A stretch of DNA of 63,950 nt, filler included, from Thraustochytrium aureum (taxonomy: Eukaryota), in the NCBI GenBank assembly GCA_012862495.1. It is 5 parts of 5 records of this genome, joined end to end, with 100 filler letters (N's around TTAATTAATTAA, not from the genome) between each part and the next. Parts side by side here need not be neighbours in the genome. Positions count along the whole stretch, not along the records: positions 24,740 to 48,157 come from BLSG01000416.1; 4 more parts are not named here. The stretch is one strand, 5' to 3'. Below the pieces are notes generated by a model. The model searched no databases and was not told the DNA's origin. It saw nothing but the letters and a program-made list of their open reading frames with translations. Of the stretch, positions 20,666 to 50,915 are shown piece after piece (the first letter of the stretch is position 1; every line of letters begins with the position of its first letter). The position numbers and the translations under genes were made by a program.

Positions 20666-23600
20666 GGCAGCGCCGATGACGCCGAGTCAAGGCCACGCGG
20701 GACGACCGCGGGCAGCTTGGACGACGGCGCCGCGCCCGCGCTCCACCCCGGCAGTTTCACTGGCGGCGTCGGCGCAAGGAAAGCGCGCGAGCTGCCCTCC
20801 GCAGTGCCGCGACTGAGCGTGTTGGTCCCCTTCTCTGCGGACCAGGAGGCGAGCCTGGCGGCCGCAGACGCAGAGGCGAGGCAGACTGACGAGGCGGCTG
20901 CGGCGGGCGACGAGTCGTCGAGCGCGGACCGCGAGTCCGTCCGGCGCACAAATGTACAGACACGCATCAACTCGACCGTACGCAAGCAGCTGGCCGACCT
21001 CATGGTGCGGCAGAACGCGCGGCTCCTAGACCGCAGAGCAGCTGGCGCAGCCGCGGGCGCGGCCCCCGGTGCGGCCCCGTCCTCGGAGCGCAAGAAGCGG
21101 CCCTCGCTGCAGCGCGTCAAAGGTCCTCGGCCGTCCATCCCGGCTGCGCTCAAGTTTCGCGCGCAAAAGGTGAGCGCACAGACTGGCGAGGCCGCCGCTG
21201 GCGAGTCGAACGCCTCCACGAGTGAAAGCGTGGGCGCTCGGCGTCCCTCCGCATTGGGGGCGGCGCAAGAACCCCTGCCTCGCGAGTCTGCCAAGTCGAA
21301 CTCGGGCAAACCTGCGGCGCTCTCTGAATCGGACGCGCCGGCGGACGGACCAAACGGCGCCCAGAACGACAGCCTGCGAGGTGCGGATCTGGGGGCGCTG
21401 AACGCTCGCGCAGCGCCGCCACGGGCGCCGCCCAGAGACCGCAGCAAGCCAGCGTCGTCAATGTGCGCCAGCGAAACGAGCGACTCTGAGGAGTCGCCAA
21501 TAGCCCTCACCGCACAGCTGGAACGGGACCTGGACGGCGACGGGTCAGAGCGGAGCAGCGCCGACTTGGAGGGCAAACGGCCGCAGCAGAGCAGCAGCCG
21601 CATGACCTCGTTCATGGCGAACGTGTCGCGGCTTCTCACGGCGTACCAGAAAAAGTCGGTCAAGGAAAAGGACCAGCGAAGCCTGCGCAAGCAGCGCAAG
21701 CGGCAGCAACGGCAGTCGCTGCGGCTTGGCGACCTGATCCACTACCTCCCGCGGGGCGGCGTGTACGTGATGACGAGCATCGGGCCGGTCCAGTTCGGCA
21801 TGCCGCCCGAGACGGTCAAAGACAGCATGGAGATGGGCCTCCGCGTGCCATCCGTCTACGTCGTCCCGCGCGAGCGGTTCAACCTGAGCGCTGGCGTCAA
21901 CGTGTGCGAGATCGAGTTCCCGGCGTTCTTCAACTTCTTCGTGCTGATGAAGCCAACAACGCTCGTGACGCACCGCGACACGTACGAAGACCTTTTGACG
22001 ATTATGAATGAGGCGCTGAACGGGCCGCAGCCGCACTTGCTGTTTGCCGAGCGGGAGTACTCGGCCTTTTGCCCAGAGTCGGTGCGCGCCGCTTGCCCAA
22101 ACCATGCGGCTGAGATATACCACTTTCGCGCCCCGAACCGCAAGCCGGGGGCCAAGCCGAGCATGCTCGACGTGGACATGCTCCTGGACGTGCGGTTCTT
22201 CGACGACGACGGGGTCTGCGACCTCGGCGAGGGTGTGCGGGTCTACGACGACGAGGAGAACTCGCGGTTCGAGCTCCTCGACACCAAGATGCACAATCGC
22301 ATGAGCGTCCGCAAGCGCACCGAGGCCGCCGCAGAGACCTTGACGCAGTCCTCGCTGACGACCGAGGACGAGGACGGCATACTCGTCCCGTACCGCGAAG
22401 CGGAGTCGTGCACGGTGCCCATTAGCGCGGGGCTCGTCCCGGAGCTCGATTTCGCCGACCCAAACGAGGACCCCACNNNNNNNNNNNNNNNNNNNNNNNN
22501 NNNNNNNNNNNNNNNNNNNNNNNNNNNNNNNNNNNNNNNNNNNNNNNNNNNNNNNNNNNNNNNNNNNNNNNNNNNNNNNNNNNNNNNNNNNNNNNNNNNN
22601 NNNNNNNNNNNNNNNNNNNNNNNNNNNNNNNNNNNNNNNNNNNNNNNNNNNNNNNNNNNNNNNNNNNNNNNNNNNNNNNNNNNNNNNNNNNNNNNNNNNN
22701 NNNNNNNNNNNNNNNNNNNNNNNNNNNNNNNNNNNNNNNNNNNNNNNNNNNNNNNNNNNNNNNNNNNNNNNNNNNNNNNNNNNNNNNNNNNNNNNNNNNN
22801 NNNNNNNNNNNNNNNNNNNNNNNNNNNNNNNNNNNNNNNNNNNNNNNNNNNNNNNNNNNNNNNNNNNNNNNNNNNNNNNNNNNNNNNNNNNNNNNNNNNN
22901 NNNNNNNNNNNNNNNNNNNNNNNNNNNNNNNNNNNNNNNNNNNNNNNNNNNNNNNNNNNNNNNNNNNNNNNNNNNNNNNNNNNNNNNNNNNNNNNNNGGT
23001 CGGGCAATCGCGAGAGCGCCGCTTTCCAGATCCCAAAGTTTGGCATCACGGTCCTCGGCAACTCTCACGGGTTCGACCCCGCTGGGTCGACCTCCGGGTT
23101 TGTGCTCTGGGTGAACGGGCAGGGCGTGATGGTGGACCCTCCGCCGCACAGCACTGCGCTCCTGCTCGATGCTGGCATTCCGCCCAACTCGATCACGGCC
23201 ATCATCCTGACGCACTGCCACGCCGACCACGATGCAGGAACCTTTCAAAAGATGATCACCGAGAACAAGGTGACGCTGATGACGACGTCGACCATCTTCG
23301 AGAGCTTCAAGCGCAAGTACGCCGCTGTCTCTGGGCTCAAGCCAGAGTTTATTCAGCAACTCGTCAGCTTCCGCCCCATGTTCCTGGAGGAGCCCAACTA
23401 TTGGAACGGGGCCAGCCTGCGGTTCTTCTACTCGCTGCACAGCATCCCCTGCGTGGGGTTCCAGGTCTCGTTCGGCGGCAAGGACATTGTGTACTCGGGT
23501 GACACGTTTTACGACCCGCCAGCGCTGCGCCGCATGCACGAGGACGGGACCCTCAGCGCGGCGCGGCTCAAGGCCCTGCTCGATTTCCCCTGGCACTGCG

Positions 23601-24639
23601 ACATTGTGCTGCACGAGGCTGGTGTGCCGCCCATCCACACCCCCATCGAAGCCCTGGCCGACCTCCCCAAGGCCTGCAAGAAAAACATCCACCTGATCCA
23701 CATTGACAAGCGCGCTGCGAGCCGGGCCGAGAAGTTTGGCTTTCGGATCGCGAAGGCGGGCGTGGAGAACACGATGGTGCTCATCCCGCGCGGGGAGGAC
23801 CAGCAGATGCTAAAGTTTCTGCAGCTCGTGAGCTCGATGGAGATCTTTCGCCACTTCAAGGTGGCCCAGGCCCTGGACCTGATGCTCATGTCGCGCGAGG
23901 CCTCGTACCCGAAGGGGGCGCTCATCTTGCGAAAGGGGACCACGTACGACCGCTTCATGATCATCCTGCAGGGCCGCGCCTCGGTCCAGTTTGAAGACGT
24001 CAAGAAGTTTTTTCGCGCCGGAGACTATCTCGGCGAGCTAGCTGCGTGGAGCGAGGGCGCGCCCGACTCGGCGAAGGCGGACGAGGCAGGCGCGGACCCC
24101 CGAGTCAAGGAGACGGTGCTCGCAGAGACGGACGTCAAGGTCATGGAGATCGACAAGTACGCGCTCAACTATCTGCTCATGAAGGACCCCGCTTTGCGCT
24201 CGAGGCTGGAGACGATGATCCACGCTCGCGTGGACGGCTCTTGGGAAGCCATTTCCAGCAACTCGCGCCTGCGCCTGCTGAGCTCGATGCAAAAGACCGA
24301 GCTTCAGGCTCTGCTGGTCACCCGGCGGCTTTCGCGCGGCGATATTGTCTGGGCTCGCGGCGATCCGGTCTCCATCGCGGTGCTCATCTCGCGCGGCGAG
24401 CTCGTCTTCGAGGAGGTGCACGGCCCCGTGCTGCGCGAGATCTCCGCAAAGGCCAAGGCTCTCCTAGAGGGGGGCCCCGCGGACGAGGAGCGTGTCGCGG
24501 CGAGGCGGCGCGCCCGCTCCACGGCTGCCAAGGGCGGCCGGAGGCTAACGGTGGGCGATCCGGACTGGGCTTTGCCCGACGTGGACGAAGAGGCGTTGCA
24601 CGAGTTCTCCGACCGCGACCTTGAGGGACAAGACCCCTC
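20666..24639 (+). CDS. Metallo-beta-lactamase-fold cyclic nucleotide phosphodiesterase with cNMP-binding domains (Dictyostelium PdeD/PdeE, GbpA/GbpB type); both ends truncated
   Basis: LGNSHGFDP..TSGFVLWVNGQGVMVDPP, THCHADHDAG (HxHxDH), LHSIPCVGF, YSGDT and HEAGVPPIHT, followed by cNMP domains (GALILRKG..FMIILQG..GDYLGE; GDIVWARGD..LISRGEL). N-terminal QFGMPPETVKD. Confidence 0.88.
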
Positions 24640-24739
24640 NNNNNNNNNNNNNNNNNNNNNNNNNNNNNNNNNNNNNNNNNNNNTTAATTAATTAANNNNN
24701 NNNNNNNNNNNNNNNNNNNNNNNNNNNNNNNNNNNNNNN
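24640..24739. other. Artificial scaffold linker N44-TTAATTAATTAA-N44
   Basis: Identical 100-nt structure occurs four times. The 12-mer gives stops in all six frames. Confidence 0.97.
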
Positions 24740-24840
24740 GGCAATGCTGCTTGGCGTCTGCCTGGCTGCCTGCGCGCGTTGGCGTGCGCTGCTCGGAGCT
24801 GGTCATGCGCGTGTCGCAGTGGCGCGAGGGGCTCTGGAGA

Positions 24841-26282
24841 ATGGCGACCCAGGGGCAAGCTAGCCCAGCTCGATCCGGCAGGGGGCCTCGAGGCCGGCCT
24901 CCTTGCCGCCAAGAGCAAACCGCCTCCAGACAAGGCGCCGCCCCACAAGAAGGGCGCCGTGGACTTTTGGGGACGTGGCGTCTGGGTTGTTGGGCTGTAC
25001 CTGTTCCAGGGCGTCTTCGCGGAGGACGTTGTCCTCGCCATGGTAAGTCGGCCGCAGGCGCCCTTCCCTGCTGTGCGTTGTCGCGCCTCGAGACGCGGCA
25101 GACGGCTGACGCGATCGACTCAGAACGCGCAAGGAGAAAATCTCAGCTGGTTCATAAGCCTGCTCACCGTAGCCAGCCAGTTTTCCGTCGCGTATCTTTC
25201 GATTATGCTGCGGCACAAGCACGACAGTCACGACGGCGGTGCGGTGCCCGTCAACCGCAGGTTTACGTTGGCGTACTTCGTGTCCCGGTATCGCTGGGAG
25301 TATGGCATGTCTGGATTGAGCACTGTCCTCTACGCTGTAATGAGCAACCGGGCGACCATCTTTCTCAATTTCAACACGGTGCAGCTGTTCAAGACAAGTA
25401 AGATTGCCTACGTCATGGCGCAGAGCTGGGTGCTTCTTCACCACGCGTATTCGCTGTAAGTTTCTCTCTCACTTGGCAAGCTTGGTCATGCTTGGGAGCT
25501 GGCGCAAACACGTCGCCGTCGCTGACGGGACTCGCGCGGGGCGCGCTCGGCGCCTCATTAGTCGTGCCACTATGTACTCTATCTCACTCTGCGCCGGGCT
25601 CTACGTGCTCTCGCGCGCTGATGTGGAATCGACAAGGAAAGCTCACGTCTCAGACGTAAACGCAACGGAGCAGCTCGCCACTCTTGTCCAGGGCTTTTCC
25701 CTCATGTTCGTCTCGATGCTCTTCATTGCTCTGAGTAACGTGCTCCAAGAAGCAGTGTTGCGCCAGCACGTCTGGTCGTGGCCGTGGAGGCGGAACAACG
25801 AGAAGACTCTGTCGGACGTTGTGCCGCTCAACAAGCGCAAAGCGCACCAGGTCAAAGACGAGCTCATTTTCTTTTGCAACCTGGTCACGAGCGTCGTCCT
25901 CTTCGCGGGAGCGGTGTACCATGGCGAACTTGTGCGCGGGTTTGCGTTCTTCCGGCGCAACTCTGCGCGCCTAGTTTTCGAGCAAGCGGTCATTCTTTGT
26001 ATCAACGCTTTCGGCCAGCGCCTCATGCTCGACTTGTCGCACCTGTATGGCTCGACAAGCGCGACAATCGTCGTCACGGTGCGCAAGACAATCACATTTG
26101 CGCTCTCGGTGTTGTTTTTTCCCAAGCCCTTCAGCGTTACGCATGGGGTAGCCCTTATCGTGGTGAGTGTGGCTGCTTGCCTCCTGCAGCTGCAGATCAT
26201 GGCGGATGAACGCCGCCCGCGCAAGACTCGCGCCAAGGAGCCGCCTCCGAGCGATGGCGGCATAGGAATCGTGCTTGTCTAG
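24841..26282 (+). CDS. UAA-family nucleotide-sugar/PAPS transporter (SLC35B-like); introns 25043-25123 and 25456-25561; 1-nt frameshift in G-run near 24852
   Basis: MSNRATIFLNFNTVQLFKTSKIAYVM, SNVLQE, TVRKTITFALSVLFFPKPFS and multiple TM helices. GTAAG donors with CTGAC branch points restore the frame. Confidence 0.85.
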
Positions 26283-26581
26283 TAGAGCCCTGCTGCGCGA
26301 GAGAGCGTTGGCACTCCGTGGCTCGCATTTCTGTTCCCGTTTCGGGCGGGTACGGGAATCAAGGTAGAGTTTTTCGAAATGAGATGGGCCAAAGTTTCCA
26401 AATGGAAGCTCAAGCTTGGCATGCTCACCTCCGAGCAGGCACAGCAATAGGCGGAAGCGGGGCTCGATTACCGCAACGACAACCTCAATACCGGTTCGTC
26501 CCCTGAAAAAAATTCTACAGCAACACGTGTCATGTTCAATTTCCCTCCAACGCCGTTGGCCAAGCAGCTTCGCGACCCGCT

Positions 26582-27328
26582 TCAGCACCAGCCCCCTGCA
26601 AATGGGATCACCTGGCCAGTGATATAGTCTGCCTTGTCAGAAGCCAGAAAGGCGACAAGTTCGGCGGGCTCCTCCGGGCGGCCGAGTCGGTGGAGTGGAA
26701 TCCGCTTGACGATCTTGGCCCGTGTCGCAGCGTCGGCCAAGAGCTCCTCCGGAAAGTACGTCGGGCTCTCGATGAAATTTGGCGCGACGGCGTTGACTTG
26801 GATGTTGTGCTGGGCGAGCTCTTGCGCGAGCGTGACAGCCATCGCGTTTGTAGCCCCACGTGCTACCACGTACGCGCTGTAGTTGGGCAGGCCCCGAAAC
26901 GGCGTCGCAGAGGTGATGAAAATGACCTTGCCGCTCCGACGCGACTGCATGGACGGGACAACCTTGCTCGTCAGTTCAAAAGGAAATATGGTGAGCGCTG
27001 CAAGCGTCTCGGCCAACTCCTTTGCGCTCACATCGGTGCAAGCATTGCGACGCGCAGGGAACGCGTCGTTGTTAACGAGGACGTCCACGTGATTCTCCAC
27101 TGCCGCGGCGACCTCGCTCGCCGAGCTAGCCTTGATGAAGAGCACTCTCTCGCGACTTGACTCGTCCAAGCGAGCGCGAAAGTCGTTTACCGCGCTCGGC
27201 TCCTTGAATGCCGAGTCCTGGCAAAACAGCGTCCCCTCTGGGTTGGCCGCTGCCAGGGCCCGCGTCACGGCGACACCTAAAAACTCAGTCACGTTCGTGA
27301 CGAGGAGCCGGCGGGCTGGCGTCCCCAT
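26582..27328 (-). CDS. hhe: Halohydrin dehalogenase (haloalcohol dehalogenase/epoxidase; SDR fold), 248 aa, intronless
   Basis: T-X4-F-X-G (TNVTEFLG) replaces the SDR TGxxxGxG cofactor motif. Catalytic S-X12-Y-X3-R (SATPFRGLPNYSAYVVAR) replaces YxxxK. Also DVLVNND, halide-loop APNFIESPTYFP and terminal GQVIPFAGGW. Confidence 0.88.
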   Translation of the reverse strand: MGTPARRLLVTNVTEFLGVAVTRALAAANPEGTLFCQDSAFKEPSAVNDFRARLDESSRERVLFIKASSASEVAAAVENHVDVLVNNDAFPARRNACTDVSAKELAETLAALTIFPFELTSKVVPSMQSRRSGKVIFITSATPFRGLPNYSAYVVARGATNAMAVTLAQELAQHNIQVNAVAPNFIESPTYFPEELLADAATRAKIVKRIPLHRLGRPEEPAELVAFLASDKADYITGQVIPFAGGWC

Positions 27329-27342
27329 ATTGGCAGCGAGGC

Positions 27343-27359
27343 AGGCAGGCTGGCTTGCG

Positions 27360-27399
<40 letters not shown>
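27343..27399. repeat. (GGCT)n microsatellite running into a gap
   Basis: Directly visible just upstream of the dehalogenase ATG. Confidence 0.9.
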
Positions 27400-27823
27400 N
27401 NNNNNNNNNNNNNNNNNNNNNNNNNNNNNNNNNNNNNNNNNNNNNNNNNNNNNNNNNNNNNNNNNNNNNNNNNNNNNNNNNNNNNNNNNNNNNNNNNNNN
27501 NNNNNNNNNNNNNNNNNNNNNNNNNNNNNNNNNNNNNNNNNNNNNNNNNNNNNCCCCCGTTGCATTGGAGGGAGCAAGATCCAGCCAGCTTCCGCAGAAC
27601 AGGCGCCGCTGATTTGCGTGCGAACGGATCTTTTATGACCAGAGTCCAGCCGAGGCTGTTCCCCTTTCCGTCAACGCTTCGCTTCGCATTTGCTGCGCCC
27701 CCACGCGCGCCGTCCAGCAGCAACGACGACGCGCAGCAGCATCGACGCCGTAGAGCGGCAGCAACGCTAACAGCGCCCTACTTACCAGTAAAGGTGGCCG
27801 ACGGCTCCGACGAGTTCAAACAC

Positions 27824-29044
27824 ATGGGCCATGACTCGGACCGCACAACGTCCAGTCGCCGTCAGCGTCGCCGCAAGGGAAACGCCCCACGGCTTGTCTG
27901 GCACGACTGCGATGACGAGCGAGATCGCAGTGATATCCGTGTGGAAATCCTTCGAGACGGTGGCGCAGCGTCTCGGAACAAGACCAGTTGGACGGGAAGG
28001 GACCAGTTCGTGTACGACACGACCAACGCGAGGTCTATAGAGGATATTGCGCGATGCGTGGACCAGCTCGCCCGAGCCAGCTTTGACGAGTGGGATCCAT
28101 CGATGGAGCTGGCGTGCCCGTGCTGCATCGACAGAAAGCTTCCACACGGTACGAGTTTGGAAACGATGCTGGAAAGCCTGGGAAGGTTTGCTCGCGAATT
28201 CGCAGGCAAAGCAGATATCGTTGGCCCTGACTCGGCCATTGCAGATTCGTTGTGGCGTGCATTTGCGGCTGTGGACTGCACGGCATCAGGGACTGGGTTT
28301 TGCTCTGTAACCGCGTCGTGCGCTGGCGGGCTCGGCGCTCAGAGCTTGCGAGGGCCGTGGGAGCGCTCGCACAAGAGGGCTTGCTGCGCAAGCGCCAAGT
28401 ACTCTAAGGGACACTTTATGGACGAGCACCTGAATACGAGAGCGCCTGCGAGCCTCAGCAGGATCCAGTTTGCCGAAGCTGTCTCGCAAGTACTTGGCGT
28501 GCGTGCCTCGTGGCTAACGCTCCGCCTCATCACGGATGCGCTTGTCGAGGATCGCAGCGATCGCGTTTCCAAACGACTCTTCTTGGAGCGCGTGATTCGG
28601 TTGCCTTTGCCCGCAAGTGAGCACGCTCAGTACGGGCGCTTCGCACACAAGCTCTGCCGCTTCCTTGTGGCGGAAAGCATGGACGCGACGGCAGCATTGC
28701 AGTGGGTCGCAGAGGGGCAGGGGCCAGGAAAGCCAAGCAGGGCGATTTCGCTCGCGGCCTTTGCACGCGCCTTACGCAAGGATGTCGACATAGACCTGGA
28801 GTGGGACCTTGCTCGAGCTCTTGCCAGGTCATACGGGACAGCATCAGGAGTGGGTTTCGCGGCGAAGGGCTTTTGGGACATGCTTGTGGACCTCTTCTTG
28901 CTGCGGGCCGCCGAGCTCGAGCGGCGCCTTTCCGTTTCTCCTTGCGGCTCGCGCCAAGCTCGCGCGCTCCAGCGCAGGCTTGGGGAGTGCGAGCGGTTCT
29001 TGGCCTCTGCCTACGCAAAGCGGGAGCACGACCCATCAATCTGA
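27824..29044 (+). CDS. Hypothetical protein, possibly with degenerate EF-hands; start uncertain (alternative ATG 27635)
   Basis: Long ORF with EF-like segments LWRAFAAVDCTASGTG and EDRSDRVSKRLF. No firm family assignment. Confidence 0.55.
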   Translation: MGHDSDRTTSSRRQRRRKGNAPRLVWHDCDDERDRSDIRVEILRDGGAASRNKTSWTGRDQFVYDTTNARSIEDIARCVDQLARASFDEWDPSMELACPCCIDRKLPHGTSLETMLESLGRFAREFAGKADIVGPDSAIADSLWRAFAAVDCTASGTGFCSVTASCAGGLGAQSLRGPWERSHKRACCASAKYSKGHFMDEHLNTRAPASLSRIQFAEAVSQVLGVRASWLTLRLITDALVEDRSDRVSKRLFLERVIRLPLPASEHAQYGRFAHKLCRFLVAESMDATAALQWVAEGQGPGKPSRAISLAAFARALRKDVDIDLEWDLARALARSYGTASGVGFAAKGFWDMLVDLFLLRAAELERRLSVSPCGSRQARALQRRLGECERFLASAYAKREHDPSI

Positions 29045-29272
29045 ATTGTGATGGCGCCGTAGGTACCGAACAGCGCGCTGCTCGCCAACGGCACCAACGG
29101 ATAAGCCCCAGCAAGCAAGCCGAACGCACGCCGCGAAAGCAGACGTCCGCGCCAAGTGCGTACGCACCAGCCGTGGCAGATAGACGACTTTCAGCACGCG
29201 CGCAGGCCTGCAAGGCGGCCGACAAGGCGGTAGGCAGACTGGAGCCGGAACCAACGTGTTGCCCAGCCTCCA

Positions 29273-30999
29273 ATGGACGACGCAGCTGACCACAGCGGTC
29301 GCGCGCGAGGCCCAGCACGGAGCAAGGGCCTGCCGGAGGTCGGGTTTTGGCGTGGGGGCAACCTCTCGATTCCTACGCCTGGCGCGAAGGCTGGCGGAAG
29401 CGCGTTTTTCAACGCAAGGCAGCAGCGTTGGGAGCACCGCCACCAGCTTAAGACGCACTACCAAAAGCTCGCCAGTGTGAAGAGCAGCATCCCCCCAGTG
29501 CAGCCGCGTGGCGGGGCGCGGCCCAGTAGACCTGTACACCGGGCAGCTCAATCACGCAGTGCTCGCTTGCCTGCAGTGAAACAGGCCAACGTTGCGAGTC
29601 GCACCTCGTGGCAGGCCAGCGGGCATCAAAGAAAGAACGCCAACAACAACAACAACAACAACAGAGAAGACAGCGCCAGCGACAGCAGTGAGTCGTGGCG
29701 TGAGGGCGCCAGTAGACACAAGGGCGCGAAGAGCATCCAGCTGAACCGCGGGGCAAAGTCACTGAGCCCGAAGCGCCAGAAAGACCACGGCGCTGCGGCC
29801 AAGCTTCCACCCGTCAACCTTGATGTGGCTCGCCAGCGCCGCCAGAACAATATTCTGAGCGTGCTTGAGCAGGAAGAAAAGAAGATCTTGCACGCCAAGC
29901 CCGTCAAGCCCGTCGTGATCGCCTCGCGGTGCGGGCTCGCGAGCGGCTCGAGGAGCGCCAACTCGCGGAGGCGCTCCAGCGCAAGGAGGAAGAAAAGCAA
30001 GCGCGGCGCGAGGAGCGAAAGCGAGCGAAAGCGGAGCGGGCACGAGAGCGTGAGCGTCTCCAAGCCGAGCGAGAGCGGGCGAAAGTGGCCAGTGTCAAAG
30101 CAACAGCGGCTGTGGACTTCCGTGAGGAGGCTCCACTCTCAGCCAGCGCAACGCAGAAAGTTTGTCACGCGCAACCCGCGACAAATTGCGAGCCCGCAGG
30201 AGGCCGTTCTCGAATTCCGCGCCCTCCTCGCGGCCTTAGTTCCGATGCCCAAGGAAGCAAGGCGGTCGAGCGGAGTGCTTCAGAGGATGTCCTGCGTGGC
30301 TTTGACCATGCAAGCCGTGGCTCAAGCGCCGGCGCCTCGATCAGTCAGTTCTGGACGCGCGACACAGCCTCGGCTCAAGGGTCAGCAGGAATCGCTCGGC
30401 TATGCGAAAGGGGCGAGTCTGCTGAACGGTCCAAGTGCGTCTCAACCCCGCTGAATGTCCCATACCCCAGCGACGACGAGGCCGGTGGAAGTGGGAGCGA
30501 ATGCGACACAGCAGAGCAAGGCGAGCAGAGCTCGTGCGGTGCTTCGCATTCGCCTGCTGGAGCCCAAGGCTGTCGCGTTCAACCTGCTAATCGGTCCACC
30601 TCGACCTCGAACTCGGATGCGCTGCTGAACATGTCAGACACGAGCGGGATGTTTCCGTCAAGCCTTGACGTCCTCGAGCGCGTGCAGGACGACAAGCGGC
30701 CAAGCCCTGGAGGTGATTCTGATGCAAGGGATTCGTTGTCCGCGCCCGGGGTGGGTGCACACGATTCGAGCTTGAGACGTGACGCCATCGAGAGTGGGCT
30801 TGTTTCTGGCTCCGGGTCTCATGGGCCTGTTTCTGAGAAATGTGATGGCGATGAGGCCTCTTCGCAAATGGGGGTTGAGAGCGACGGCGAGGACTCCTAC
30901 GTCGACGAGGATTCGCTCGGTTCTATCATTGACGCCGCGGCCCTCATCGAGAGGAGTTTGTGTCAGCTCGAGCAAGAACAGGAACGTGAAGACTCATGA
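29273..30999 (+). CDS. Hypothetical low-complexity/coiled-coil protein; 1-nt frameshift near 29890
   Basis: Adding one G at TTG^CACG joins ORF 29273 to the E/R/K-rich ORF ending at 30999 (LARQARQARRDRLAVRARERLEE). Contains an (AAC)n poly-Asn run. Confidence 0.6.
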
Positions 31000-31704
31000 T
31001 GCGATGCGAACTTTTCTGTCGAAGGTAGCCGTCGTCCCGAGTCGAATACCGGTGTACGAGTACGAGTTGTTCCGTGCTGAGTAGGGTGGGTTTTAATTAA
31101 GGTAGGTAGTACCTCTACGGTACTCGAGGACCACTCCAAACATTGATGATAGACTCGTTTCTTTCACTTTTTCTTTTTTGTCGCGTGGAAGGTGGTAAGG
31201 GTAACATCGAACCGCATGGAATCGGTTGTCACTTCTGCTCATCAATCGTCGAGCCTCCAACCACTGGCAAGTTGTCACGCAACCTCCAACCCCAACCAAG
31301 TGTCTCCAAGCAAAGAGGGTCCTCCTTGCTCTCTGAACCATCCGTTTCCTGGACAGAGCCGAGCTCATCGTCGGATCCTCCTCCTTGCTCTGCGTTGCTG
31401 GTTTGTGACGTTTTGCCAGCCTCGATGAACACTGCTGGGTCGGATCGCGCGGCGCTGGCAGCTTGTCTAATGATCCCGTGGAAAAGGGAGATGGAGGTGG
31501 ACGAGAAAGCAGCACGGGATCCAAGCCGTCATTTCTCCGGTATCCTTCTGACCCCTAATGGGATCGGACAGAGCGACAGACATGATGTTGGCGATGGTTT
31601 CCCGACAGACACCCTTCTTGCAGCAGTACTCGCGAGCCCGCACGTCTACCCAGCCGAACCAGCCGAACCGCCAACCGCAGGAGAGCACATACCGCGCCGC
31701 CACA

Positions 31705-41560: not shown

Positions 41561-44188
41561 CTAAACCACGGAGGAGCCGGAGTGCGAGTCGTGAAATAGG
41601 CTCTCTGCGCGCGAGGTTGGATTCCCAGGTGCGAGCGATGAAGGCACAAACGTCATGGCCGTCTGAATGACGCCCCGGTTCCCAAATTCCTTGCCGGCGT
41701 TGGGCTGTGTTGACCCCATCGTCTTTGTGGAGCCCTCAGCCGACTTTTTGTCTGAGCGGAAACCCTCGAAAAGCTCGCCGCCCTCGCCAGAAGTGTCATA
41801 AACATTGAAGTGAACGCCAAGAATCTTGGGCCCGAAGAGGAAGAGCAGGAGCGTAAAGTCGTTGAGGAACACGATCGCGCCCTTGACAAACATGAGCGTT
41901 TCCGAGTTTTCGCTGACGATAATCATGACCGGGATGCCAAGGGCGAGGACCTGCACATACGACCACATGGCAAGGGCGACGTGGCGCGCCTCGGCAAAGG
42001 TGCTGTTGATCTTGCGGCATGTCCAGGAGATGTAGTTGCCGCCCGCAAGGATTGCAAAGTGGAAGACTCCCAAGATGAGCAGAAAGGTGAGCGACGAGTC
42101 GCTGCTGCAGGTGGCGACACTCTCCGTAACGTTGTCGAACTCGTCGGCACTGATCCTATTTCGAGTAAATGTCAGGGGATCTAGCAGTGTCCAGCAGGCC
42201 AGCACCGTGACGTCGATTGCAAGCAGGGTGGCGATAATCATGAAGAGGTGCCAGTTTGGGACGATGACGCGGCGGAAGGCAGCTCTCGTTACGAACAACA
42301 ACCGAATTCGCCAGATCCGTGCGAAGAGCGCGCCGAAGGCGATCGTGAACCCCACGCTGTAAAACCAGATCGAGCCCATGCACGCGGTGTTGGCCGTGGC
42401 GTATGCTGAATCGTAGCTCAATTGCACTTCTTGGCCCTCTTCGGCGACGTCGTCGACGGCAATGAAAAAGATTGACGACGACGAGACCATGACACCGACG
42501 GCAATGCAGACCAAGAAAACGACTTGGGATGCTCGGATGATGATGTGATTGCGCTTGGCCACGGTCCAGAGCGCCAGTGAGAAGGCGAAAACCACGTTAC
42601 AGGCTCCCATCGCGTTCACGACATGGCGCAGGATAACAGAGTGGTTCCGATCCTCATCTGGGACGACCACGTCGTTGGGGCGCGAAGTGGTGCCGCCAGT
42701 GTAGACGAGCTGGCTTTCAAACGTCCAAGTGCCATTCTCGAAGAGGCCGACCCGTTTAGCCGTGAATATTGCGCCGTCGTCGCCGGCCGACCCGGCGCCC
42801 GCCGCATCTGAATAGATGATATTGTACATGGCGGCCCCTGCAGTCTCCGCATCGCGGTCCCCGGTCTCGTCAAAACGAACCGTCCCAGTGAGGCCCTCGA
42901 AGGAGAGGCCGAGTTCCGACTTTGCCAGGAATTTGAAGAACTCTTCGCCAAAGTCGGCGTCGTTGATTTGCGTGTCCTGTAACAAGCACGCGCCGAGCCC
43001 AGCCGCGATCACGGCGTCGTAGAAGAACGCTCCAACGTCACTGATCTCGGCCGAATCTTGACCAACGCTTGCAAAAACGTTGCCGTAGCCCTTCCAGACC
43101 TCCGGCCAAGCAGCCTGCACACCGGGGAGCGCAGACGCGTTCAGGTCCTTGAGCGAGAGCATGTCCCACGGTGTAGGGGGCGAACCCTGCCGTCCTGCCT
43201 TGGCGCCGAGGTTGGCGATGCGCAGCGTTCCGTTGAGCGCCGCGCGGTGCTCCAGTTCAACGCCAGCAAAGTCGGCGGAGGAGATACCGTCCGAGACAAG
43301 CCACATCGAGTCTTTAAAGAGACCCAATTCGCTACCTTCGCGCACAACGGTTGGCAAAATCCCGTCAAGCGAAACGAGCAAGAAAATGCGGATCTTGGAT
43401 TGCTCGAGCCTCTTGAGCTGCGCAGACAGTTGAGCGGATGCCGCTGCACTCTTCTCTCCTGAGAAGGGGAGGGTTAGGACCGTGATATCGGGGCTGCAAA
43501 AGGCGACGATGGCTTCCTTGTATGCCTCGCCATACCCATCGTTCACGTACAGCATTGCTGTGTGATTGTAGCCGCTGTCCCGCCAGAACGCGCAGGTGGT
43601 CTTGGCGACGTCGGCGTCAGTAGGGATGGTGCGCAAAAACCGCTTGTACTTGGTCTCGCTGAGCTCGGTAGAAGTGGCCCAGTACGAGATTTGCGGCACA
43701 TCCCTGGCTCCGAGGATGAGCGAGGTGGGAATCGACGATGCCGAGGTCGCCGGTCCGATGACAACATTGGTTTTGAATGACGTGTCGGTGATGACATCGA
43801 TTGTTTCGCTCACGGCGACGTCGGCGGAGAAGCTCGTGTCGCGCTCGCGTGCGACGAGGTTGAGGTCGCCGCACGCGGTGTCCACCATCTCCAACTCCTT
43901 CACGATCGTTGCATTTCGCGTGTTGAAGTGCTCGACTGCGAGGTGGCCCATGGCGCTCAGCGCGGCGAACTTGGTGCCGTAGAAGCATTTGTTCGAGCCC
44001 CACACCCCGCCGATCTCGCGGGCGGTGCAACTCGCTTCGTTTTGAATGCCTGCAATGGTTTGGGCGTTGAGGAAGGTCAAGTTGAGAGTCACGGCCTGCG
44101 CCTCATTGCCAGCAAAGCCCACGGCTGCGTAAGCGCCCAGAGCTGCGAGCGCCAGCGCGCGCTTGGGGCTGAATGGAGGCATCATCAT
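41561..44188 (-). CDS. Class C (GABA-B-like) G-protein-coupled receptor: Venus flytrap domain + 7TM
   Basis: Signal peptide, VVIGPATS, VPQISYWATSTELS..FLRTIPTD, FFYDAV, FEGLTGTVRFDETGDR. 7tm_3 motifs IRASQVVFL, GFTIAFGALFARIWRI, WTLLDPL, FAEARHV and LFGPK. Confidence 0.93.
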   Translation of the reverse strand: MMMPPFSPKRALALAALGAYAAVGFAGNEAQAVTLNLTFLNAQTIAGIQNEASCTAREIGGVWGSNKCFYGTKFAALSAMGHLAVEHFNTRNATIVKELEMVDTACGDLNLVARERDTSFSADVAVSETIDVITDTSFKTNVVIGPATSASSIPTSLILGARDVPQISYWATSTELSETKYKRFLRTIPTDADVAKTTCAFWRDSGYNHTAMLYVNDGYGEAYKEAIVAFCSPDITVLTLPFSGEKSAAASAQLSAQLKRLEQSKIRIFLLVSLDGILPTVVREGSELGLFKDSMWLVSDGISSADFAGVELEHRAALNGTLRIANLGAKAGRQGSPPTPWDMLSLKDLNASALPGVQAAWPEVWKGYGNVFASVGQDSAEISDVGAFFYDAVIAAGLGACLLQDTQINDADFGEEFFKFLAKSELGLSFEGLTGTVRFDETGDRDAETAGAAMYNIIYSDAAGAGSAGDDGAIFTAKRVGLFENGTWTFESQLVYTGGTTSRPNDVVVPDEDRNHSVILRHVVNAMGACNVVFAFSLALWTVAKRNHIIIRASQVVFLVCIAVGVMVSSSSIFFIAVDDVAEEGQEVQLSYDSAYATANTACMGSIWFYSVGFTIAFGALFARIWRIRLLFVTRAAFRRVIVPNWHLFMIIATLLAIDVTVLACWTLLDPLTFTRNRISADEFDNVTESVATCSSDSSLTFLLILGVFHFAILAGGNYISWTCRKINSTFAEARHVALAMWSYVQVLALGIPVMIIVSENSETLMFVKGAIVFLNDFTLLLFLFGPKILGVHFNVYDTSGEGGELFEGFRSDKKSAEGSTKTMGSTQPNAGKEFGNRGVIQTAMTFVPSSLAPGNPTSRAESLFHDSHSGSSVV

Positions 44189-45629
44189 TGTTGGTCGTTC
44201 GCGCGGTCGCAGCTGTCGACAGCAGAATCAGCTGTTGATGACGCTGTCTCGTGGCGTTGGAGGTCTGTTGTGGTCCAGTCCAGTCTGTGTGTTGCGTGCG
44301 TGTGTTGTTTGTGTGAGCCCCGTTTTGATGAGCAAGTCGGATCCTTGCCCTTGCAAATTCCGAGTCCGAGCAGAGCACGAACAGACTGGTACACAAATAC
44401 AGAGTGCTCCTGAGCGCAGGTCGATCACAAGCAAGTAGGTACTTCCTCCTCGACCGGACATCATGAGTCGGTGACATGACCAGTGGAGCGAGGGGCGAGG
44501 GACACGAGTCGCGGGTCTGAGACTCGATCACGTCGTGCCGGACAAGGCGCGGACAAGACTACCTGCTCTACACTCTACTTCGAGAACCTACTCGTCGGGG
44601 CTCGACTTGGGTTTTGGTGGGCCTCACATGCTGCGAAGTGAGTGAGGCCCGTGCAGAGAGAGAGCATCCGAACGAGCCGGCTCGGAGTCGCTGGTGCAAG
44701 CCAGCCGGACAGACAGAGGCCGTTGACCCAGCTCGTCGTCCTTCGCCTTGAAAAGTTGGTCCAAAACCACGAAGAGCCATCCATCCAGCTGACCAATTCC
44801 GAACCCGCCTGCCCGCCGCGGCGGGCCAACCCGAGCAGATTTGATTTTCATCAGAGGGTGATGCCACTGTTGAATGCACACATCGCCCCTGCCACTGGCA
44901 GACCACCGGCAGACAGCACGCACTGGCAGCACACGGCAAGCGCCGCGGCGAGCTCGCTAGCTCTCTAGCTAGTAGAGAGAGAGTGTGTAGGACTGATGAG
45001 TAGCGGTGCGGTTCGTTTTTGTTGTGAGGCAAAGCCTGTCCTGTTTCTCGTTCGCTCCGTTGCACTTTGCACCGAGCAGCGCCCCTCTCAGGGCGCGTGG
45101 CAAGGCGAGTTGGGACAGCGCCGCAGGAAGCAGGGGCCTCCTCAGGCTGCGAGCAAGGAGGATCCGACTGCGAGTTAGGTGGGATGAGAACTCTCGCAGC
45201 GGCGCAGCAGCGGAGGCCCGTGCCCTCCGTGCCTCATCATGGACAGTGTCTGTCTCCCACTCGCTCGAACTCCTCGCTCTGCCCACCGGAACGAAACGAA
45301 CGTTCTTTCGAGCGCGGCCATCGGACAGAGGCCAGCGACTCTGCCAGCGATCAGCGCGCTTTTCGCTGGAAGAACAACCAGGTGCTCGTCGCCCTTCGAT
45401 GGATCTGGCGGCTTTCACTGATGATCAAGAAAGGTCAACTGGCAGTGGCAGGCAGGCGAGCCAAGCCGACAGCGCGCGGCGGCAGGCGCAGCGAGCGCGA
45501 CAGAGCGGTGTGCGCTGGTTGCGGCCGGCGGCATTCCACAGGGCGCCGAGCCATACAGCGGCGTCGCGCACGGGCTTTGTGGGCGGGTTTTGAGGCTGGG
45601 GCCCGGACCTCAAGAACGGTGGAGGACGC

Positions 45630-48921: not shown

Positions 48922-50307
48922 CTAGTTGACACCCTTCTGTGAGGCCTCAAGAAGGGCGTCGCGGCGCTGGTCATAGGCTCGCTTGAGCTCCTGGATGTCC
49001 TGCTGGAACTGCGCGTCGAGGTTCTGCAGCTTGTGCGTCAACTCTTGCATCTCCGTCGAATTGGCGGGGATAATCCACTCGTCGTCCTTGTCCACAGGAG
49101 CCTCCTTGGCAAATGTGTTCTTGGACTGAAAATAGCGCATAAAGGCCGGGGTCGCCCCTGTCCCAGCCGGGCCCTTAAACTTGGTCGTTCCTTGCGTCGG
49201 CGTGAAAATGGAGGTTTTGTTCCCACTGTTGTTGTGAACCATTGTGCTGCTGCCAGTCTGCAGCGTGCTCCCCTTGATCATGGTGTTGCCGGTCGTGCCC
49301 TGCGCCAGGAAGGCAGTGTTGCCATGCGTTGCGGAGCTCGAGCTGGTGCGCTCCGTGGGGACGGTCCGGCCCTCGGCCTCGGCCTTGCGAGCCTCGTCGA
49401 TCTCCTCCAAGTTGCGGTGGACCAGCGCTTGCAAGATCGGAGACACGCCGCGGCGAGACGAACGGTCCAGTCTTTCCACGGCCGCCTTGACCCAGGGGTC
49501 GCTCACGGGCTCTGCAGCCGTCGGGCGCTGGTCAGGGTTTTTCTGCAGGCACTTTGCGAGGAACGCGTTCATCTCGGGCGACCAGTCGTCGGGAAGCTGC
49601 AGCTTGGGCGGCGGCCTGCTCGGGATCATGAAGATGGCGCGCATCGGGTGGATGTTCGAGTAAGGGGGCTCTGTCTCGGCCATTTCGATGATAGTGATAC
49701 CGAGGGACCACACGTCGGCCTTGCCGTCGTACGAGCTTTCGCTGATGACTTCAGGGGCCATCCAAAACGGCGTCCCGATGACCGTCCGGCGCTTGGTCTG
49801 GTCCGAGCTCAGTTGCGCCGAGACGCCAAAGTCGGCCAGCTTGGCATTGCCGTCCTTTGTGAGCAAAATGTTGCCGGCCTTCACGTCGCGATGAATCATC
49901 TTGTTGTCGTGCAAGTAGGTGAGGCCCAGCAGCACGGAGGCGACCACCTCGCGGATCTCCTCCTCTTCCAGGTTGGTGCGACAGATGTGGATCAGGTCGT
50001 TGACTGAGCCAGCCTCGCACAGCTCCATCACGATCCAAATGCGATTCTTCTCTTCGTCGTGGTAGCTGCCGACGTACTGCACCACGAACTCGTCGCGTGT
50101 GTTTTTTAGAATTTCGATCTCCTTCTCGAGCTCGGACATCTCCTCGTCGATGGGGATGATCTTGATCGCTACGCTGTCCTCGCGCGATTCGTCCTTGAAC
50201 CGCGCCTTGAACACTTCGCCATAGCTCCCTTCACCAAGCGACTCCTCCAAGATGAACAAGTCGTTGGGGTCCCCAGACTTGATGCCTTTCACCGGCGTTT
50301 TGGCCAT
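48922..50307 (-). CDS. STE20 family MST1/2 (Hippo/KrsA)-like kinase with C-terminal SARAH-like helix
   Basis: GEGSYGEV, HRDVKAGN, DFGVS, KRRTVIGTPFWMAPEVI, DVWSLGIT, PPYSNIHPMRAIFMIP. Tail ELTHKLQNLDAQFQQDIQELKRAYDQRRDALLEA. Confidence 0.93.
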   Translation of the reverse strand: MAKTPVKGIKSGDPNDLFILEESLGEGSYGEVFKARFKDESREDSVAIKIIPIDEEMSELEKEIEILKNTRDEFVVQYVGSYHDEEKNRIWIVMELCEAGSVNDLIHICRTNLEEEEIREVVASVLLGLTYLHDNKMIHRDVKAGNILLTKDGNAKLADFGVSAQLSSDQTKRRTVIGTPFWMAPEVISESSYDGKADVWSLGITIIEMAETEPPYSNIHPMRAIFMIPSRPPPKLQLPDDWSPEMNAFLAKCLQKNPDQRPTAAEPVSDPWVKAAVERLDRSSRRGVSPILQALVHRNLEEIDEARKAEAEGRTVPTERTSSSSATHGNTAFLAQGTTGNTMIKGSTLQTGSSTMVHNNSGNKTSIFTPTQGTTKFKGPAGTGATPAFMRYFQSKNTFAKEAPVDKDDEWIIPANSTEMQELTHKLQNLDAQFQQDIQELKRAYDQRRDALLEASQKGVN

Positions 50308-50915
50308 CTTGCCTCAACCCAGCGCTCCTGCGCGCCGAGACCGCCGCGCCCCGCAGCGTCAATCAACGCGCGCCGTACCCCCACCCACCGTGTCCGCTCC
50401 GCCGCAGCTCCCCGNNNNNNNNNNNNNNNNNNNNNNNNNNNNNNNNNNNNNNNNNNNNNNNNNNNNNNNNNNNNNNNNNNNNNNNNNNNNNNNNNNNNNN
50501 NNNNNNNNNNNNNNNNNNNNNNNNNNNNNNNNNNNNNNNNNNNNNNNNNNNNNNNNNNNNNNNNNNNNNNNNNNNNNNNNNNNNNNNNNNNNNNNNNNNN
50601 NNNNNNNNNNNNNNNNNNNNNNNNNNNNNNNNNNNNNNNNNNNNNNNNNNNNNNNNNNNNNNNNNNNNNNNNNNNNNNNNNNNNNNNNNNNNNNNNNNNN
50701 NNNNNNNNNNNNNNNNNNNNNNNNNNNNNNNNNNNNNNNNNNNNNNNNNNNNNNNNNNNNNNNNNNNNNNNNNNNNNNNNNNNNNNNNNNNNNNNNNNNN
50801 NNNNNNNNNNNNNNNNNNNNNNNNNNNNCACGCAAGAAACCGAAAACCTGCGAGAATCAGCCGAATAGTTCACGAACAAGTAGAGGGGGGCGGATCAAGA
50901 GCCCCCGCCTGCGGT

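Follow-up and report, generated by a model that had tools for sequence, protein, structure and literature searches.

A predicted A-type halohydrin dehalogenase gene in the nuclear genome of Thraustochytrium aureum

The dehalogenase locus and its genomic setting

The features of the locus are listed in Table 1. The window is the whole stretch of DNA analysed here, 63,950 nucleotides (filler included) that join five parts of five records of the Thraustochytrium aureum assembly GCA_012862495.1. The focal open reading frame (P0001) translates into 248 amino acids with zero stops and zero introns, and it converges on a nucleotide-sugar transporter gene whose stop at 26282 lies 299 bp from its own. 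Both genes are contained in one N-free stretch (24740-27399), and both transporter introns are absent from the contigs of two sequencing runs (X1 and X3). The gap-free, tail-to-tail join to an intron-containing SLC35B gene that the preliminary description of this DNA had claimed is thereby borne out.

Table 1. Features of the predicted dehalogenase gene and of the neighbouring transporter gene; positions refer to the window
Feature	Position	Strand	Basis and remarks
Predicted A-type halohydrin dehalogenase, SDR fold (P0001)	26582..27328	-	Intronless ORF, 248 aa
HHDH motif 1, T11-X4-F16-X-G18, anion pocket	27275..27298	-	Motif search; replaces NAD(P)-binding glycine motif
Asp88, aligned to HheC D80 (SND Asp)	27065..27067	-	Alignment
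Triad motif S140-X12-Y153-X3-R157, catalytic by analogy	26858..26911	-	Motif search; contig-covered codons
P183-N184-F185...Y191-F192-P193 loop, aligned to HheC halide-binding segment N176-Y187	26750..26782	-	Alignment
UAA/SLC35B-type nucleotide-sugar transporter gene	24938..26282	+	PF08449, E 7.5e-15; 5' end approximate
Transporter introns, GT-AG	25043-25123, 25456-25561	+	Contigs skip both

Contigs of four runs (X1-X4) out of eight were compared with the locus. X2 is of the DNA type; X1, X3 and X4 act as RNA, since, besides the transporter introns in X1 and X3, three introns of a gene for a Cys/Met enzyme are missing from all three runs, and since they leave the stretch 27560-31454 mostly bare, yet 30/30 of its bins are covered in X2. 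Over the ORF, RNA-type contigs extend across 26672-26931 and 26969-27140 (X1) and across 26609-26776 and 26972-27136 (X4), and one X2 contig with a single synonymous difference spans 26513-26958; the coverage leaves out the F16 codon, positions 26489-26512 and, in X3, the ORF, and these gaps carry no weight as evidence. The triad codons S140, Y153 and R157 are covered by X2 and by the first X1 contig, so that the Arg codon, whose possible misreading had been raised as an objection, is matched twice. Three differences were found in the ORF, namely two synonymous ones and a T202A exchange in a contig of depth 2.7. The RNA-type contigs stem from a single study, have a depth of 2.7-5 and are possibly not independent of the window sequence. 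The similar depth of the X2 contigs across transporter and ORF (3.3-5.8) speaks against a chimeric join, but a contig bridging the two genes was not found among those of X1-X4.

The ORF also resembles its surroundings in composition. Its GC3 of 0.74 compares with 0.73 in the last exon of the transporter, and a host-type (CCAG)n microsatellite is located upstream of it. A Pfam scan of 45 ORF stretches (39 + 6), hand-picked from 120 frames with a minimum of 200 aa and a handful of shorter frames, shows the window to be plainly eukaryotic, with a class C GPCR, a RING-FHA protein, kinases, and C2 and EF-hand proteins. The ORF is native to the nuclear genome of the host and not a contaminant.

Several further observations concern the window as such. 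In the X2 contig one base is missing at 24828 (site within 24805-24830); without it an ATG at 24805 is in frame with transporter exon 1 (hand count), which may reflect an error of the window or an allele. A large protein with a metallo-beta-lactamase fold and a cyclic-nucleotide-binding domain (20717-24637, plus strand) runs across an assembly gap, and the 12-base A/T spacer at 24684-24695, with 44 N on either side, has the look of an assembly linker rather than genomic sequence. Two long ORFs of 494 and 393 aa (27560-30454, plus strand) have no Pfam match and almost no RNA-type contigs. The class C GPCR (41564-44227, minus strand) combines ANF receptor and 7tm_3 domains in one long frame, and a protein kinase (48925-50313, minus strand) has an Mst1 SARAH domain at its C-terminus (24.9 bits against a Pfam cut-off of 23.1); should the host be a stramenopile, this Hippo/MST-like kinase would be noteworthy.

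Motifs, fold and family assignment

The two motifs named in the preliminary description, T-X4-F-X-G and S-X12-Y-X3-R, were recovered by translation and motif search, the first as TNVTEFLG at residues 11-18, together with NND at 86-88, PNF at 183-185 and TYFP at 190-193. The same motifs are the published discriminators between halohydrin dehalogenases (HHDHs) and SDRs, as had been stated: according to the available text of PMC4989007 they served to identify 37 genes, and 19 enzymes selected among those found by motif were confirmed to be active, and the accessible part of PMC11976700 gives identical definitions. Neither the glycine motif T-G-X3-[AG]-X-G nor Y-X3-K was found anywhere in the 248 residues by motif search, and Arg157 occupies the position of the Lys. 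Since motif 1 has a second, chance match at residues 139-146, it is weak evidence when taken alone.

An alignment with 330 relatives places the motif residues of P0001 in the canonical columns, which are conserved: T/S11 in 330/330, F16 in 327/330, G18 in 330/330, S140 and Y153 in 329/330 each, and R157 in 330/330. Every catalytic and pocket residue checked is retained in P0001. The column of Asp88 holds Asp in 325/330 relatives and Thr in four, namely the thraustochytrid-type orthologues P0002-P0005, which read NNT or HNT in place of NND. In HheC the equivalent D80 is essential for proton delivery and is limited to subtype A, other subtypes having Leu at this position, according to the portion of PMC13434774 at hand, which also names the halide-binding segment N176-Y187. 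As judged from its D80-equivalent Asp, P0001 is of the A-subtype kind. It begins directly at the first strand, and the protein is therefore probably cytosolic.

Structural comparisons lead to the same family. The best sequence match of P0001 in the PDB is entry 6A41, titled 'dehalogenase' (E 4e-55), followed by entries of HheC, HheD, HheA and HheB ahead of any reductase, and a profile of seven protist-type sequences retrieved 12 PDB sequences at E<=1e-35, each of them a dehalogenase according to its name or the title of its entry. The AlphaFold (AF2) model, computed from a 28-row alignment, has a pLDDT of 93.8. A Foldseek search with this model places 6A41 and HheC variants first; among the rows listed there is nothing but dehalogenases down to rank 16, and the first FabG appears at rank 17. 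In the trees described below, 89 HHDH-like rows are split from ten YxxxK SDRs with SH 100, which is the grouping that the preliminary description had predicted. On the level of sequence and modelled fold, P0001 belongs to the HHDH family, and dehalogenase activity is predicted. Among the relatives, a neighbouring HHDH-like group (P0166, P0170, P0191, P0194, P0198, P0225, P0234 and P0235) has motif 1 and is devoid of the S-X12-Y-X3-R spacing, for example by lacking Tyr at the triad position.

Database labels tell a different story. Pfam assigns P0001 to adh_short families only, and the 25 NCBIfam models among the matches listed are all SDR reductase models with scores far below their cut-offs (e.g., TIGR01830, 123 bits versus 297.75), so that annotation pipelines default to generic names. 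The mislabelling as 3-oxoacyl-ACP reductase that had been anticipated is a reality in its relatives: P0002 and P0003 are named '3-oxoacyl-[ACP] reductase' in UniRef and 'DHRS4' in NCBI, and a reductase is named in every UniRef or NCBI label seen for the orthologues.

Protist clade, bacterial relatives and origin

A search for relatives with P0001 scored 7997 candidates, 433 of them at E<=1e-30, and both HHDH motifs are present in 112 of the best 120 of these 433. The top matches are labelled as eukaryotic, first CAK9064823 from an assembly of Durusdinium trenchii (59%), then the Hondaea fermentalgiana protein GBG24028 (56%) and proteins from MMETSP; the orthologues in Hondaea and in the MMETSP protist transcriptomes are 51-58% identical to P0001. 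One member of an MMETSP cluster bears the label MMETSP0958 and the taxon number 87120, a fungus in NCBI, which we read as a slip for 87102, Aurantiochytrium limacinum; MMETSP0958 is presumably this species. CAK9064823 (P0002) nests among thraustochytrid rows (100/90), and we suspect a co-cultured thraustochytrid contaminant in the D. trenchii assembly as its source. Below the protist matches follow bacterial proteins at about 50-55% identity, and the identities of the best bacterium (55%) and the best protist orthologue (58%) are nearly equal.

The phylogenetic set of 99 rows comprised 13 eukaryote-side rows, 47 representatives drawn from 276 near relatives by clustering at 68%, a further 29 distant HHDH-like rows and ten YxxxK SDRs; two rows were trimmed at frameshifted tails. 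The eukaryote-side rows are the query, six eukaryote-labelled proteins and an unlabelled remainder that had been picked by sequence likeness before the trees were computed. HheA, HheA3, HheA5, HheB, HheC and HheG are represented in the trees only through the proxies L058 and P0183 (6A41-like). The query falls into a clade of eight protist-type rows with SH 91 and 93 in the 99-row trees and 87/94 in a 54-row tree, whose bootstraps had not settled (0.982). The enclosing clade of nine to ten rows, which adds two further unlabelled ones, is supported with 96-98 and 99/95, respectively; in a quick PMSF tree the long-branched P0153 stands outside. A check across other labyrinthulomycete sequences, which had been proposed at the outset, thus yielded orthologues in Hondaea and the MMETSP transcriptomes that form one supported clade.

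A two-residue insertion between G18 and D38 is present in the eight rows of this clade, in P0153 and in a protein of the diplonemid Artemidia motanka, and in 0/317 other rows; P0150 has five extra residues at the same site. The Artemidia protein and another one of the nucleariid Parvularia atlantis, both motif-bearing, were added by a representative search (EukProt), and a second profile search revealed no new named eukaryote in the best 120 of 614 matches. Both proteins, P0154 and P0158, carry N-terminal extensions of ~25-35 residues rich in Ala, Arg and Ser, which are candidate targeting peptides.

The linkage with the transporter looks old. Its best homologue is the MMETSP protein 'Transcript_1879/g.3236' (P0352, 53%), and the HHDH orthologue P0130 is 'Transcript_1879/g.3237' (54%). 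A convergent gene pair merged in one unstranded assembly would be expected to look like this; the sample identifier is cut off from these names, so the linkage is strongly suggested by them rather than read directly. If it is right, the two genes have stayed together across roughly 45% protein divergence. A metagenome scan with the protist alignment gave 79 loci; the protist insertion is absent from all full-length ones that were aligned, and a second eukaryotic locus for direct synteny was therefore not obtained.

The bacterial affinity of the gene, as initially proposed, is supported. The protist clade is nested among motif-bearing proteins of marine Alphaproteobacteria, and 77 of the 80 GTDB loci kept (out of 132 confirmed) are titled Alphaproteobacteria. 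The family of genome G001 has a match in 46/73 genomes. The query falls into the same weakly resolved radiation as the protein of Sneathiella glossodoripedis and the 6A41-like row in three trees. Strain JCM 23214 of this species has a single match at E<=1e-30, 48% identical to P0001; S. glossodoripedis is listed as the source of HheA7 in Table S1 of PMC4989007, and we infer that this match is HheA7. A protein of Alphaproteobacteria bacterium 46_93_T64, which we take to be the strain of Xue et al. 2019, is 49% identical. Since the bacterial backbone of the trees is unresolved, we name no donor lineage. A plasmid collection contained no match to P0001 at E<=1e-25. When 1473 ORFs of the 80 GTDB loci were clustered, the top 40 clusters viewed held neighbours at the level of single lineages only, such as genes of 16 Sneathiella-type loci that look purE/purK-like on visual inspection of the first 70 residues; a neighbour common to several lineages was not found among the largest clusters. 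One locus, L047, is titled as a Pseudomonas marincola MAG, yet its gene order and protein match the Sneathiella-type loci, and it is probably a misbinned contig.

Taken together, we consider it likely, with a probability of roughly 0.8, that this nuclear gene encodes a predicted cofactor-free A-type HHDH derived from one ancient acquisition from marine Alphaproteobacteria and inherited since. The preliminary notion of a horizontal acquisition holds with respect to the bacterial affinity, and it is refined with respect to age: the protist HHDH is probably old, common to the protist clade and kept beside the same transporter gene, not the product of a recent transfer. The eukaryotic copies might alternatively trace back to one much older acquisition, by an early eukaryote or the mitochondrial ancestor, or result from later spread between protists. 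We regard this as unlikely, although the motif-bearing relatives in Artemidia and Parvularia speak for it, along with the shared insertion of the former and the alphaproteobacterial identity of the nearest bacteria. Because AU tests reject neither a single clade that unites the 13 eukaryote-side rows (p 0.27) nor the union of Artemidia with the clade (p 0.31), a single older eukaryotic origin retains some probability. Against it, both proteins branch outside the supported clade in all three trees, the distribution is very patchy, and both are known as transcriptome proteins whose host origin is taken from their labels. The Parvularia protein has no insertion, and its identity to bacterial proteins (57%) exceeds that to the clade (38-44%); both points favour a gain of its own in this lineage.

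Predicted function and comparison with known systems

The ancient A-type HHDH of our preferred reading would work as follows, by analogy with HheC and HheA. A vicinal halohydrin would be held at its hydroxyl by Ser140 and deprotonated by Tyr153, whose pKa Arg157 would lower, and Asp88 would relay the proton to the solvent. The resulting alkoxide would expel the adjacent halide into the pocket that motif 1 and the 183-193 loop make up, leaving an epoxide; the reaction would be reversible with small anions and use no NAD(P). The scheme described for HheC in the available text of PMC4989007 is the same, with Ser binding the hydroxyl, Arg activating the Tyr base, Asp relaying the proton, and a reversible, cofactor-free reaction.

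The task of the enzyme in the cell is a more tentative matter. Saprotrophs on algal detritus meet haloperoxidase products, and for this reason we rank the detoxification of halohydrins first and the opening of epoxides with chloride second. Removal of halide from bromo- and chlorohydrins of decaying algae, or from those arising through hypohalous acid, with a separate epoxide hydrolase completing the route, is a plausible proposal to which we give somewhat less than even odds. No epoxide hydrolase domain was found in the 45 window ORF stretches scanned with Pfam, and given the absence of a bacterial neighbour shared between lineages, the detoxification role is without contextual support. The same enzyme could run in reverse, using chloride or a different small anion to open reactive lipid-derived, isoprenoid-derived or dietary epoxides. 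It would then scavenge epoxides or serve in halogenation on a minor scale in a salt-rich habitat, which we hold to be doubtful in either form. The reversibility of the reaction would allow it, as would the common occurrence in marine Alphaproteobacteria (46/73 genomes in the family of G001) without a conserved degradative neighbour; PMC4989007 counts only two HHDH genes that share an operon with an epoxide hydrolase and allows for other physiological functions. The substrate range speaks against it. A-type HHDHs are known mostly for small terminal epoxides, not for lipid epoxides.

A quite improbable alternative is that the protist branch has drifted to epoxide hydrolysis, hydrolytic dehalogenation via an Asp-Arg pair or a different lyase reaction. 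The Thr of four orthologues, set against Asp in 325/330 relatives, would fit such a change, and the exchange L142A confers hydrolytic activity on HheC through D80-R149, but P0001 itself keeps all catalytic and pocket residues checked, and subtypes other than A are canonical HHDHs despite lacking this Asp (PMC13434774, available portion). A bacterial contaminant, a chimeric join or an ordinary NAD(P)-dependent reductase, to which the intronless ORF, the 50-55% identity to bacterial proteins, the nearby gaps (24640-24739, 27400-27553) and the reductase identity of every listed NCBIfam match might point, is largely refuted and extremely improbable given the protist nearest relatives, host-like GC3, (CCAG)n microsatellite, RNA-type contigs, apparently conserved linkage, the 25 NCBIfam scores far below cut-off, Arg in place of Lys and the missing glycine motif.

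The HHDH family apparently gains a conserved, mislabelled and first eukaryotic branch. The accessible text of an SDR review (PMC2792337) calls HHDHs prokaryotic, and the sources given for all 69 entries of Table S1 in PMC4989007 are bacteria or metagenomes (hand count), in agreement with the earlier remark that the characterised members are bacterial. No report of a eukaryotic HHDH was found in the literature searched, a provisional result since catalysis journals are thinly covered there, and the available parts of PMC13345962 and PMC12660952 mention none. The underlying chemistry is probably not new. Transfer of genes from bacteria to protists is common.

Marine saprotrophic protists at large may run halohydrin and epoxide chemistry with an ancient alphaproteobacterial HHDH that is conserved across labyrinthulomycetes in a stable genomic position, with separate gain or spread in the diplonemid and the nucleariid and an Asp-less thraustochytrid sub-branch of altered activity or selectivity, a composite picture that we place just short of an even chance. 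If it is true, disrupting the gene in a thraustochytrid amenable to genetics would show what HHDHs act on in nature. The natural role of these enzymes is admitted to be open in the consulted parts of PMC4989007 and PMC11976700, and thraustochytrids can be knocked out (PMC10016063, in the part available), which makes the question testable in a eukaryote. The Asp/Thr contrast among the orthologues offers a ready-made comparison for the A-type proton relay, and the position concerned has lately been linked to an unusual hydrolytic activity (PMC13434774, available text). HHDHs are valued biocatalysts and industrial enzymes, and the protist branch provides scaffolds that are 50-55% identical to the bacterial ones. 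A eukaryotic branch hidden under 'reductase' labels also adds marine protists to natural organohalogen cycling.

The closest parallels among known enzymes include A-subtype HHDHs of Alphaproteobacteria. Of those listed in Table S1 of PMC4989007, HheA3 (Parvibaculum lavamentivorans), HheA5 (Tistrella mobilis) and HheA7, the last without a verified mark, share with P0001 both motifs, the D80-type Asp and a similar length. Unlike these A-types, the clade of P0001 has a eukaryotic nuclear gene, the two-residue insertion after helix 1, clade-specific indels and, in one protist sub-branch, Thr for Asp. The structure 6A41, for which no paper was found in the literature searched, resembles P0001 (TM 0.88, 39% identity in Foldseek) with the same NND and triad spacing, and it differs in its halide loop, which reads SNY versus PNF. 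HheC of Agrobacterium radiobacter AD1 (1PWX; TM 0.84, 34% identity in Foldseek) aligns with T7/F12/G14 and S132/Y145/R149 to T11/F16/G18 and S140/Y153/R157, and with D80 and the P175-N176 loop to D88 and P183-N184. P0001 is devoid of the C-terminal extension of HheC with Trp249 and has Leu147 at the place of Trp139 (numbering counted from the alignment), and an HheC-like enantioselectivity is therefore not expected; the differences suggest that the selectivity of the predicted enzyme would be modest. Within thraustochytrids, crtIBY belongs to another pathway and P0001 shows no fusion, yet crtIBY is a horizontally moved metabolic gene patchily shared with unrelated protists (PMC10016063, available text), as the gene of P0001 probably is.
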